Source: a virus
Lineage: Duplodnaviria; Heunggongvirae; Uroviricota; Caudoviricetes
IMG/VR virus record: IMGVR_UViG_2778261387_000002
Direction: 5' to 3' (one strand)
Length of the DNA: 5,065 bases
Shown here: piece by piece, positions 1 to 5,065 of the stretch
Layout of the letters: the number at the start of each line of letters is the position of its first letter
How positions within the stretch are numbered: position 1 is the stretch's first letter
The notes under the pieces: model-generated
The model's input: the letters and a program-made list of their open reading frames with translations, nothing else
Told to the model about the DNA's origin: nothing
Databases searched by the model: none
Made by a program: the position numbers and the translations under genes

Positions 1-1460
1 GTACTGAGTAACGGTATTTTCTCCCCGCTTGTGCCGAGTTCTCGTAAACCGAGGTATTCGATAACGGCAGCAACGGTCGATTTCGCAAGAATATCCCGCC
101 CGACTTTTGTCAGGGTTGCCAGGCTGGCGACATCATTCCCCGTAAAATACGGAAACTTGCCTGCCGCAGTAGTAAGTCCGGCCAGCGCCGTCAGGGTGGC
201 ATCTTTCGGTTGCTTACCCGCAAGCGCGTTAGTCATGGTGGTCGCAAAATTCGGGTCGTTGCCCAGCGCCGCAGCCAGCTCGTTCAGCGTGTTCAGTGCA
301 TCAGGTGACGAATCTACAAGGGCGGCAATCGCAGCCATAACGAAAGCCGTGCTTGCGATTTGGGTATTATTCGTTCCCTGTCGCGCAGTTGGTGTTGTTG
401 GCGTTCCGGTCAGTGCAGGACTATTTAAGGGCGCTTTCTTGTTCGTTTCATCCATTACCGCCTTAACAGCTTTCGATGTCGCGGCCAGTGTTTCAGACGT
501 GCTGTTGGTGGCACTACTGAGCTGGACTATCCCTTTTTGTGCCGTCGTGGCGTCCTGAGCGGTATATTTTGCGTTAGCAAGGTCATACGCGGCCTTTACT
601 GCTTTCGGCGTTGCAGCCTGCGTTTCAGACGTGCTGTTGGTGGCGCTACTGAGCTGGACAAGGCCTTTTCGCGTCGTGCTGGCATCCTGCGCAGTATATT
701 TACCGTTAGCAAGGTCATACGCGGCCTTTACTGCTTTCGGCGTTGCAGCCTGCGTTTCAGACGTGCTGTTGGTGGCGCTACTGAGCTGGACAAGGCCTTT
801 TCGCGTCGTGCTGGCATCCTGCGCAGTATATTTACCGTTAGCAAGGTCATACGCGGCCTTTACTGCTTTCGGCGTTGCAGCCTGCGTTTCAGACACGCTG
901 TTAGTGGCGCTACTGAGTTGAACAAAGCCTTTTGCGGTCAGCGAGGCGTCCGGGTGACGTCGTGACTGTTCATGCTCTTTCAGTTTGTCATCCACGTAAT
1001 CCACTGTGGCCATCACCATGGTGTTATCCACGGTAAGCACCACGGTGGCAGTGCTGGATACGGTCAGAATGGTGCGAAATGTTTGTGCACGACCGGACCC
1101 TTCGGCAACGGCTGGCTTGTAACTTTCGGCAGTATTGCCCACCGCGATTAAATCGCCGTGCTCATCAAATACACCAATTTCCCGGATCCAGAATCCGCCC
1201 GTTTCAGGAGGAATAACCAGCTCCGCAATAATGCGGTTCTGATGTGTTGCGTCCAGGATGACGCGATTAACAGTATGTCGCCACACCTCATGCACCAGAC
1301 GGGTCTGCTTACTGTCTGGTGTGGGCAACGTGCCGCCACCGTCGCCCACGGCCATATGAGTCAGGCGGACAGGCTTACCATCTGGCGCGGCTGCCTGAGC
1401 TAATTTTTTGGCACCCGTATCGGTGATAACGGTTTTAAATTTACGTGTTGTGGTACTCAT
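1..1460 (-). CDS. H: Tail fiber protein, N-terminal ~486 codons; gene is truncated by the window edge and continues beyond position 1
   Basis: Hand translation of the minus strand from ATG at 1460-1458 is open to the window edge. It begins MSTTTRKFKTVITDTGAKKLAQAAAPDGKPVRLTHMAVGDGGG..., which matches the conserved N-terminal baseplate-attachment domain of P2 H / lambdoid side tail fiber proteins. It then carries 44-aa repeats (KGLVQLSSATNSTSETQAATPKAVKAAYDLANGKYTAQDASTTR) of the phage tail-fibre repeat type, and the conserved tail fiber block ...NALAGKQPKDATLTALAGL...VGRDILAKSTVAAVIEYLGL. It is absent from the ORF track only because it has no stop inside the window. Start is 2 nt after the stop of gene I. 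Confidence 0.9.
   Translation of the reverse strand, partial: MSTTTRKFKTVITDTGAKKLAQAAAPDGKPVRLTHMAVGDGGGTLPTPDSKQTRLVHEVWRHTVNRVILDATHQNRIIAELVIPPETGGFWIREIGVFDEHGDLIAVGNTAESYKPAVAEGSGRAQTFRTILTVSSTATVVLTVDNTMVMATVDYVDDKLKEHEQSRRHPDASLTAKGFVQLSSATNSVSETQAATPKAVKAAYDLANGKYTAQDASTTRKGLVQLSSATNSTSETQAATPKAVKAAYDLANGKYTAQDASTTRKGLVQLSSATNSTSETQAATPKAVKAAYDLANAKYTAQDATTAQKGIVQLSSATNSTSETLAATSKAVKAVMDETNKKAPLNSPALTGTPTTPTARQGTNNTQIASTAFVMAAIAALVDSSPDALNTLNELAAALGNDPNFATTMTNALAGKQPKDATLTALAGLTTAAGKFPYFTGNDVASLATLTKVGRDILAKSTVAAVIEYLGLRELGTSGEKIPLLS
39..64. other. Candidate DNA-invertase crossover site (gix/hix/pix/cix-like) inside the tail fiber coding sequence
   Basis: Plus-strand sequence TTCTCGTAAACC-GA-GGTATTCGATAA consists of two 12-bp imperfect inverted half-sites (9 of 12 positions symmetric) around a 2-bp core. 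By my recollection of the Mu gixL site (TTCCTGTAAACCGAGGTTTTGGATAA) it matches at 22 of 26 positions, including the central AAACCGAGGT. It encodes ...VIEYLGLRELG..., the constant/variable junction region of invertible tail fiber genes. Confidence 0.45.
469..960. repeat. 132-bp in-frame tandem repeat array (about 3.7 copies) within the tail fiber gene, with a perfectly identical core
   Basis: Copies at 601-732 and 733-864 are identical at all 132 positions by direct comparison. Perfect periodicity extends over about 573-894. Flanking copies at 469-600 and 865-960 are diverged at scattered positions. Each unit encodes one 44-aa tail-fibre repeat. Confidence 0.95.
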
Positions 1461-4446: not shown

Positions 4447-4906
4447 CGCTTTCACCCCACGTCACATCCTGGAATACATGCGACCAGTCGCCTTCGGAAG
4501 AAGGCAGACGGGGTTTTGGCTCCGGCAGGTGTTCTGCCTGCGGTGTGCCCTGACTGTTGCGCGTGATGCGAACGCGTTCCCGCAGGGGGAGCGTAAACAG
4601 GAGATCGGCGCTGTCATCGTCATTGATAACGGCAGAAAATTTGATGTCCTGATTACGCTCCGGATTGAGCAACAACTGTGGCTGATTTTCGGATAACCAC
4701 GCCAGCAGCGGCAGCGTGAGGTCGTCCAGCTCTCCGGCGTAATCCATGACAAACATCACCATCTGATAGCGGTAAACAAACGAGGGCGCTTCTCCGGTCG
4801 TTTCAATGTTGCCGCTCTCCACGAAAATGGTGAATTTCTCGGGATTAGCCTGGCACCACCGACACCCATGAAGCATGGACTCTCGCAGACTGTTTGTCTT
4901 AAGCAT
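4439..4906 (-). CDS. Tail completion protein R-like (P2 gpR family), 155 aa
   Basis: Track ORF 4439..4906. Same length as P2 gpR and occupies its position. The pattern MLK..SLR...ANPE.F.IFVESGNI...LPLLAWLSENQP is consistent with my recollection of gpR. ATG start with Shine-Dalgarno GGGAGAG about 8 nt upstream. Confidence 0.72.
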   Translation of the reverse strand: MLKTNSLRESMLHGCRWCQANPEKFTIFVESGNIETTGEAPSFVYRYQMVMFVMDYAGELDDLTLPLLAWLSENQPQLLLNPERNQDIKFSAVINDDDSADLLFTLPLRERVRITRNSQGTPQAEHLPEPKPRLPSSEGDWSHVFQDVTWGESDG

Positions 4907-4930
4907 CTGTTTTGCTCTCCTGCTCTTCCT

Positions 4931-5065
4931 TATGCTGCGGGATTATTGATTTCCAGCACCAGGCTGCCGATATCGACGCCGTACGCGGCATTTTTAGTGA
5001 TATCAGTTAACGTCAGCGCATTCAGCCCCAGTGTCAGACTGTCTTTTATGACCTGGAATGCCGGG
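4931..5065 (-). CDS. 3' end of an upstream gene of unknown function; C-terminal 44 codons only, gene begins beyond the window end
   Basis: The minus-strand frame ending at stop TAA (plus-strand 4931-4933) is open to the window edge and reads ...PAFQVIKDSLTLGLNALTLTDITKNAAYGVDIGSLVLEINNPAA*. The other two minus-strand frames have stops. It has the same orientation as the operon and sits about 25 bp from the R-like start. I cannot assign a family from this fragment. Confidence 0.35.

Follow-up and report, generated by a model that had tools for sequence, protein, structure and literature searches.

A probable Gin/PinB-type inversion crossover site in the tail fibre gene of a P88-like Escherichia coli prophage

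The 26 bp at positions 39-64 of the DNA analysed here (a stretch of 5,065 nucleotides from IMG/VR record IMGVR_UViG_2778261387_000002, hereafter the window) are very probably the fibre-proximal recombination site of a serine DNA invertase system of the Gin/PinB type, carried by a P88-like prophage of E. coli; we put the probability of this reading at about 0.93. The site lies within the tail-fibre gene, at the point where a constant N-terminal part gives way to an exchangeable tip. The partner site, the two fibre cassettes and the invertase all lie outside the window, and we infer their presence in the window's own source from its identity to related prophages, whose left flank it would share.

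Results

The sequence at 39-64 is TTCTCGTAAACCGAGGTATTCGATAA, which can be written TTCTCGTAAACC-GA-GGTATTCGATAA: an inner half-site TTCTCGTAAACC at 39-50, a 2-bp GA core at 51-52, and an outer half-site GGTATTCGATAA at 53-64. The 26-bp element is recognised as a Din-family (gix/bix-type) crossover site by its match to gix and bixL. When TTCTCGTAAACC is set against the reverse complement of the right half, TTATCGAATACC, the two agree at 9 of 12 positions around the GA core, so that the architecture proposed in a preliminary description of this DNA, two imperfect inverted half-sites of 12 bp about a 2-bp core, is confirmed, and the whole fits the family pattern (TTC....AAAC. /.A /.GT.......A). 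Both gix sites of phage Mu (NC_000929) read TTCCTGTAAACCGAGGTTTTGGATAA, the same gix sequences as are given in Table 3 of PMC3241671 for the Din-family sites, and the window site agrees with them at 22 of 26 positions; the figure that the preliminary description had quoted for gixL was therefore correct. The agreement with bixL, listed in the same table as TTCCTGTAAACC GA GGTATTCGATAA, is closer still, at 24/26. We estimate the chance of a match with at most 4 mismatches in 26 at about 3e-6 for 10 kb searched on both strands. The window has no other copy of the site at 3 or fewer mismatches, and 200 shuffles gave none.

The gene that holds the site is the minus-strand tail-fibre gene H. Its constant N-terminal part, of the P2 gpH type and 52% identical to P2 H, occupies 65-1460 on the minus strand, with the ATG at 1460-1458, and the reading frame runs on across the site and is still open at the left end of the window. 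Of the 486 fibre codons in the window, those around residue 466 cover the 26 bp and read ..IEYLGLRE.. in translation, as expected from the earlier claim that the site is inside the fibre reading frame and specifies EYLGL. In relatives the gene is annotated 'tail fiber protein' and has the Pfam domains Phage_tail_fib and Phage_fiber_2, while an NCBIfam search of the fibre N-terminus and of the invertase described below gave sub-threshold hits only or none. By comparison of the arms in the locus of E. coli 4/1-1 (L001), positions 1-38 (minus strand) are the first 38 bp of the invertible segment and the start of the exchangeable fibre C-terminus. Because these 38 bp fall in a 70-bp stretch common to both arms in the ST131 relatives, the window does not reveal which of the cassettes is attached.

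To which virus does the window belong? It is 99.5% identical to complete E. coli genomes, and its lineage is that of the P88-like phages (genus Xuanwuvirus, Peduoviridae), a P2-related prophage of E. coli. The sensible long reading frames of the window are all on the minus strand and make up a P2-type tail and baseplate block of gpR, gpS, gpV, gpW, gpJ and gpI, followed by the tail fibre. Among phage records, P2 itself matches the window in the fibre gene H only, at 85%; the remaining genes match the invertase-bearing Xuanwuvirus lineage, not P2. Outside one tandem repeat the window equals loci L007, L009, L011 and L013-L015 at every alignable base, and the mismatches between the window and the common ST131 prophage are all found where that repeat is aligned out of register.

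The repeat in question, a unit of 132 bp (44 aa) in 3.6 copies, lies inside the constant part at 460-933 on the minus strand. Its copies at 592-723 and 724-855 are identical, and the 44-aa unit contains ..GLVQLSSATNSTSETQAATPKAVKAAYDLANGKYTAQDASTTRK... The window has one copy more than every otherwise identical ST131 relative; this extra copy is the sole difference from these relatives and is no part of the switch. Relatives with the same gpJ protein as the window have the three-copy repeat only, and a search of 5,426 complete E. coli genomes for the four-copy version at 100% did not find it, the best match being EC361 at 98.7%. Since the relatives are one copy short, the length of the fibre shaft appears to vary through gain and loss of repeats; alternatively, the extra copy could be an artefact of assembly.

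At the other end of the window, positions 4930-5065 (minus strand) hold the 3' end of a gene for a 625-aa protein with SASA (sialate O-acetylesterase-like) and DUF6645 domains. In the ST131 prophage this gene is found between the lysis genes and gpR. Phages P88 and 520873 do not have this gene, which has the appearance of inserted cargo; their similarity to the window ends at 4858-4864.

The region beyond the window start can be read in the relatives. In the locus of E. coli 4/1-1, the tape-measure gene and gpU come first. Next is a gene on the opposite strand whose 199-aa product is annotated 'recombinase family protein', then a fibre gene that is only partial ('missing N-terminus') with a chaperone gene after it, then another chaperone gene, encoded on the opposite strand, and lastly the fibre gene in full. 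The stretch that separates the recombinase gene from the partial fibre gene holds an inverted partner site, TTCTCGTAAACC GA GGTTTTAAATAA, at L001 4291-4316; it is on the other strand, has the same core, and is 2.7 kb from the window-type site. The partner site is present in relatives L006-L009, L011, L013 and L014 as well. Compared with the window-type site it has 3 differences, every one of them in the outer half, and at the partner this half is non-coding. That a non-coding outer half should keep the half-site pattern indicates that the DNA is conserved, and not merely the EYLGL peptide. The segment in L001 is flanked by an inverted repeat of 170 nt, 89% identical, whose arms are fully identical over 6986-7055 (70 bp). 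The chaperones are of 175 aa and 177 aa, one for each fibre form.

Wherever the contig reaches far enough, the loci identical to the window all have the partner, the invertase and the convergent tail-gene layout, and the colinear order of H, G and tail sheath (FI) without partner or recombinase was seen in no window-identical locus that extends so far. In the source of the window, the left flank is predicted to carry an inverted site that would read TTATTTAAAACC-TC-GGTTTACGAGAA. Two draft contigs, L015 and L016, end inside the fibre gene at 12806 and 12694, level with the crossover site or a little beyond it; breakage of short-read assemblies by the inverted repeat, or by a mixture of orientations, would produce such ends. 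The start of the window is itself only 38 bp past the site.

The recombinase of the relatives is a 199-aa protein with Resolvase (PF00239) and HTH_7 (PF02796) domains. With Mu Gin it shares 85% identity, and Ser9 is found in the sequence MLIGYVRVS. Over its first 170 nt the gene has 2 differences from Mu gin, and near-identity to Mu spans the DNA from the site to nt 230 of the gene. The sis enhancer of Mu lies in this 5' part of gin, where Kahmann and colleagues reportedly placed it in 1985. The elements that the preliminary description expected to find past the window start, namely an inverted partner site, two opposed sets of fibre C-terminus plus chaperone, and a serine invertase of about 190 aa, are thus all present in the relatives, the partner in prophages identical to the window. 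Its proposal that the fibre C-terminus and its chaperone lie on an invertible segment beginning at the window start gains support by the same route.

Does the segment flip? When the 4/1-1 locus is inverted in silico from core to core, each orientation yields a complete in-frame fibre, of 740 aa or 661 aa, and the two are identical up to residue 465; the site thus does stand, in the relatives, at the junction of constant and exchangeable parts where it had been placed. Junction queries of 1.1 kb, made for each orientation, were run against the 5,426 complete E. coli genomes. At identities of at least 99% there were 129 flipped and 103 unflipped junction records, and both orientations also occur at 100%. 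Each set holds strains of the same ST131 clone with the prophage at the same chromosomal position, so that near-clonal complete genomes show both orientations; JJ1886, for instance, is an exact flip of 4/1-1, and once the 4/1-1 locus is flipped the two align colinearly over 9100 bp at 99.88% identity. Because the ST131 arms share 70 identical bp, the comparison of 4/1-1 with JJ1886 alone does not separate site-specific from homologous exchange.

A second pair of prophages settles the point. Phage 520873 (L002), whose fibre-side site is identical to that of the window, and the IHE3034 prophage (L018) are in opposite orientations, and their arms share only the 12 bp GTAAACCGAGGT. The inversion breakpoints lie inside the two 26-bp sites: the inner half-sites (39-50 in the window) go with the cassettes, and the outer halves (53-64) remain with the constant fibre part. 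The breakpoints are placed within the 12 common bp, and an exact cut at the dinucleotide is beyond the resolution of sequence comparison. Flipped relatives of the IHE3034 type were reached with a longer flipped query; a chimeric junction query based on 520873 returned mostly static P2-type prophages without invertase, and was rejected.

Discussion

How might the switch work? By analogy with the Gin/Hin paradigm, an invertase dimer would bind the site in the window, and a second dimer would occupy the inverted partner, some 2.7 kb past the start of the window. Synapsis of the dimers would take place at a Fis-bound enhancer within the invertase gene, both sites would be cut at the central GA/TC dinucleotide, and strand exchange by subunit rotation would leave the segment inverted. 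Inversion would join the constant part of H (65-1460) in frame to one of two C-terminal receptor-binding parts, each followed by its own assembly chaperone, and the phage particles of one lysogen would then carry either of two fibre tips. The catalytic details, the dependence on Fis and the consequence for host range are modelled on Mu and Hin.

One might ask whether the 26 bp have been kept only as fibre coding sequence (..IEYLGLRE..), a solitary or fossil site in a source with no partner, no invertase and no inversion. Such sites do exist. The gpH gene of P2 has TTCCTGTAAACCGAGATATTCGATAA at the same place (L005 2996-3021) with no invertase, and a P2-type prophage of E. coli C2 has an intact-looking site, TTCCTGCAAACCGAGGTATTCGATAA (L017 5121-5146), where H and G are colinear and no recombinase is encoded within 5 kb; neither of these gix/bix-like sites has a partner nearby. 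The window, for its part, ends 38 bp beyond its site. In view of these solitary sites in P2 and in invertase-less P2-type prophages, a site by itself is a lead and is not diagnostic of a switch. What decides for a switch is the identity of the window to invertase-bearing prophages: the window equals ST131 loci which have partner and invertase wherever the contig extends there, its genes other than the fibre gene fit the invertase-bearing Xuanwuvirus and not P2, and the non-coding outer half of the partner retains the half-site pattern. A site without inversion, which the preliminary description had held in reserve, is therefore real in P2 and P2-type prophages and does not occur in those loci identical to the window that extend far enough; for the window itself we regard it as very improbable.

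Could the inversions instead be the work of RecA-dependent homologous recombination between the 170-bp inverted repeats, the invertase-like site being incidental? The ST131 arms would serve well enough for this, with 89% identity over 170 nt and 100% over the 70 bp around the site, and the flip from 4/1-1 to JJ1886 can be placed only to within those 70 bp. The breakpoints are still inside the 26-bp sites, however, in the related prophages whose arms share 12 bp only, and a Gin orthologue with Ser9, and with a 5' region nearly identical to that of gin, adjoins the segment. The two orientations are, moreover, about equally frequent within one clone, and a preprint (bioRxiv 10.1101/2022.05.07.487787) describes switching within single isolates; both observations are more readily explained by a dedicated enzyme than by a rare recombination event over 70 bp. 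We judge homologous exchange to be, if anything, even more improbable than a fossil site, and take up below the Gin/PinB-type switch as the reading of choice.

The closest published counterpart is the PinB/B segment of Shigella boydii (bixL and bixR; GenBank D00660 as listed in PMC3241671). The bixL site has the same GA core and the same outer half GGTATTCGATAA as the window site, and the two inner halves differ at positions 4-5 (TC versus CT). At the invertase side, the half-site of the ST131 relatives is GGTTTTAAATAA versus GGTTTTAGATAA of the PinB system. In phage P88 (L003), the type phage of the window's genus, the sites at 5996-6021 and 2925-2950 are the published bixL and bixR, which suggests that the classical B segment lies in a P88-like prophage remnant.

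The Gin/G segment of Mu (gixL, gixR, sis, S-U / S'-U') has the same layout, namely a constant part, a site, two opposed cassettes, a second site and the invertase, and a large share of the segment in the relatives is similar to it. The chaperones of the relatives are 90% identical to U and 97% identical to U'. Of the two fibre tips, that of the 661-aa form is 88% identical to Mu S' and goes with the chaperone that matches U' at 97%; the other chaperone is the 90% match to U. The tip of the 740-aa form shares only 51% identity with Mu S, over its last 80 aa. The systems differ in their carriers, which are a P2-related myovirus prophage here and a transposable phage in the case of Mu, and in the constant part, which here is gpH-like, unlike Mu Sc. 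A further difference is a flanking inverted repeat of 170 bp, in the 4/1-1 locus, in place of the sites alone that phage 520873 has.

Gene H of P2 is an instructive contrast, as it has a homologous constant part and, at the same position, a site-like sequence that agrees at 23/26, yet partner and invertase are both absent, and gene G comes next in colinear order. P2 has A, not G, as the second base of the right half-site; G is found at that position in all of the Gin, Hin, Cin, Pin, Min and PinB sites of Table 3 of PMC3241671. Solitary sites of this kind may be fossils, or may be entry points for the exchange of cassettes.

Inversion in P2-like prophages has been reported before. From read data, Goldberg et al. 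2014 (PMC4272514) described phase variation of the inversion type in P2-like prophages of EPEC E2348/69. The preprint bioRxiv 10.1101/2022.05.07.487787, on ST131 wound isolates, describes reversible inversion within single isolates in an 'Entero_P88' prophage, between gpH-type and Mu S-type fibre parts, with a phage DNA invertase and 70-bp flanking repeats, and confirmation by PCR and XmnI restriction digest; the occurrence of both orientations is thereby extended from near-clonal genomes to single ST131 isolates. The 'Entero_P88' element is apparently the same prophage as that described here, and the 70-bp repeats match the 70-bp identical stretch of the arms in the 4/1-1 locus. The preprint terms its repeats 'direct', but in the relatives studied here they are inverted. 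In the passages of PMC4272514 and bioRxiv 10.1101/2022.05.07.487787 consulted, the 26-bp crossover site is not named, nor is it compared with gix or bix. As inversion in the ST131 'Entero_P88' prophage has been published, the finding would appear to be already known, and these EPEC and ST131 reports bear out the remark in the preliminary description that the mechanism is not a new one.

There is a further setting in which the same site is found. A lambdoid prophage in the same ST131 chromosome (L019; E. coli AR_0086, NZ_CP032201.1 3638372-3650450) has sites at 6054-6079 and 2973-2998. One is identical to the window's 26-bp site and lies inside a 941-aa side tail-fibre gene, and its partner is identical to bixR. 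There are two opposed chaperone genes, and the only recombinase is a 60-aa pseudogene. The ST131 preprint (bioRxiv 10.1101/2022.05.07.487787) also describes inversion in an invertase-less 'BP-4795' prophage. Does the one intact Gin-like invertase of the P88-like prophage also invert the lambdoid, L019-type segment in trans, and are the solitary P2-type sites likewise entry points for cassette exchange between prophages resident in the same cell? We advance this only tentatively, as an idea with somewhat less than even odds. If it is true, one enzyme would control the host range of several phages, and would generate fibre mosaics.

The module is found in a more elaborate form in two loci with the same gpJ protein as the window, L012 (12615-15698; GCA_053799835.1) and L010 (12615-15144), where the sites are of the Min type with an AA core, and where one site is the published p15B mixQ''R'. 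L012 has five Min-type sites together with several short Collar-domain cassettes, a shufflon-like, multi-inversion version of the same module.

What does the switch mean for this prophage family? The mechanism has been a textbook one since Mu, P1 and e14, and as inversion has, it seems, been reported in this very prophage, no new question is opened. There are consequences for annotation all the same. The fibre gene is properly described as a constant part with two switchable tips, and the 'partial' tail-fibre pseudogene beside the invertase in RefSeq is the silent cassette. Short-read assemblies are expected to break or to be mis-joined at the segment. By analogy with the known systems, ST131 lysogens would release a mixture of particles with two receptor specificities.
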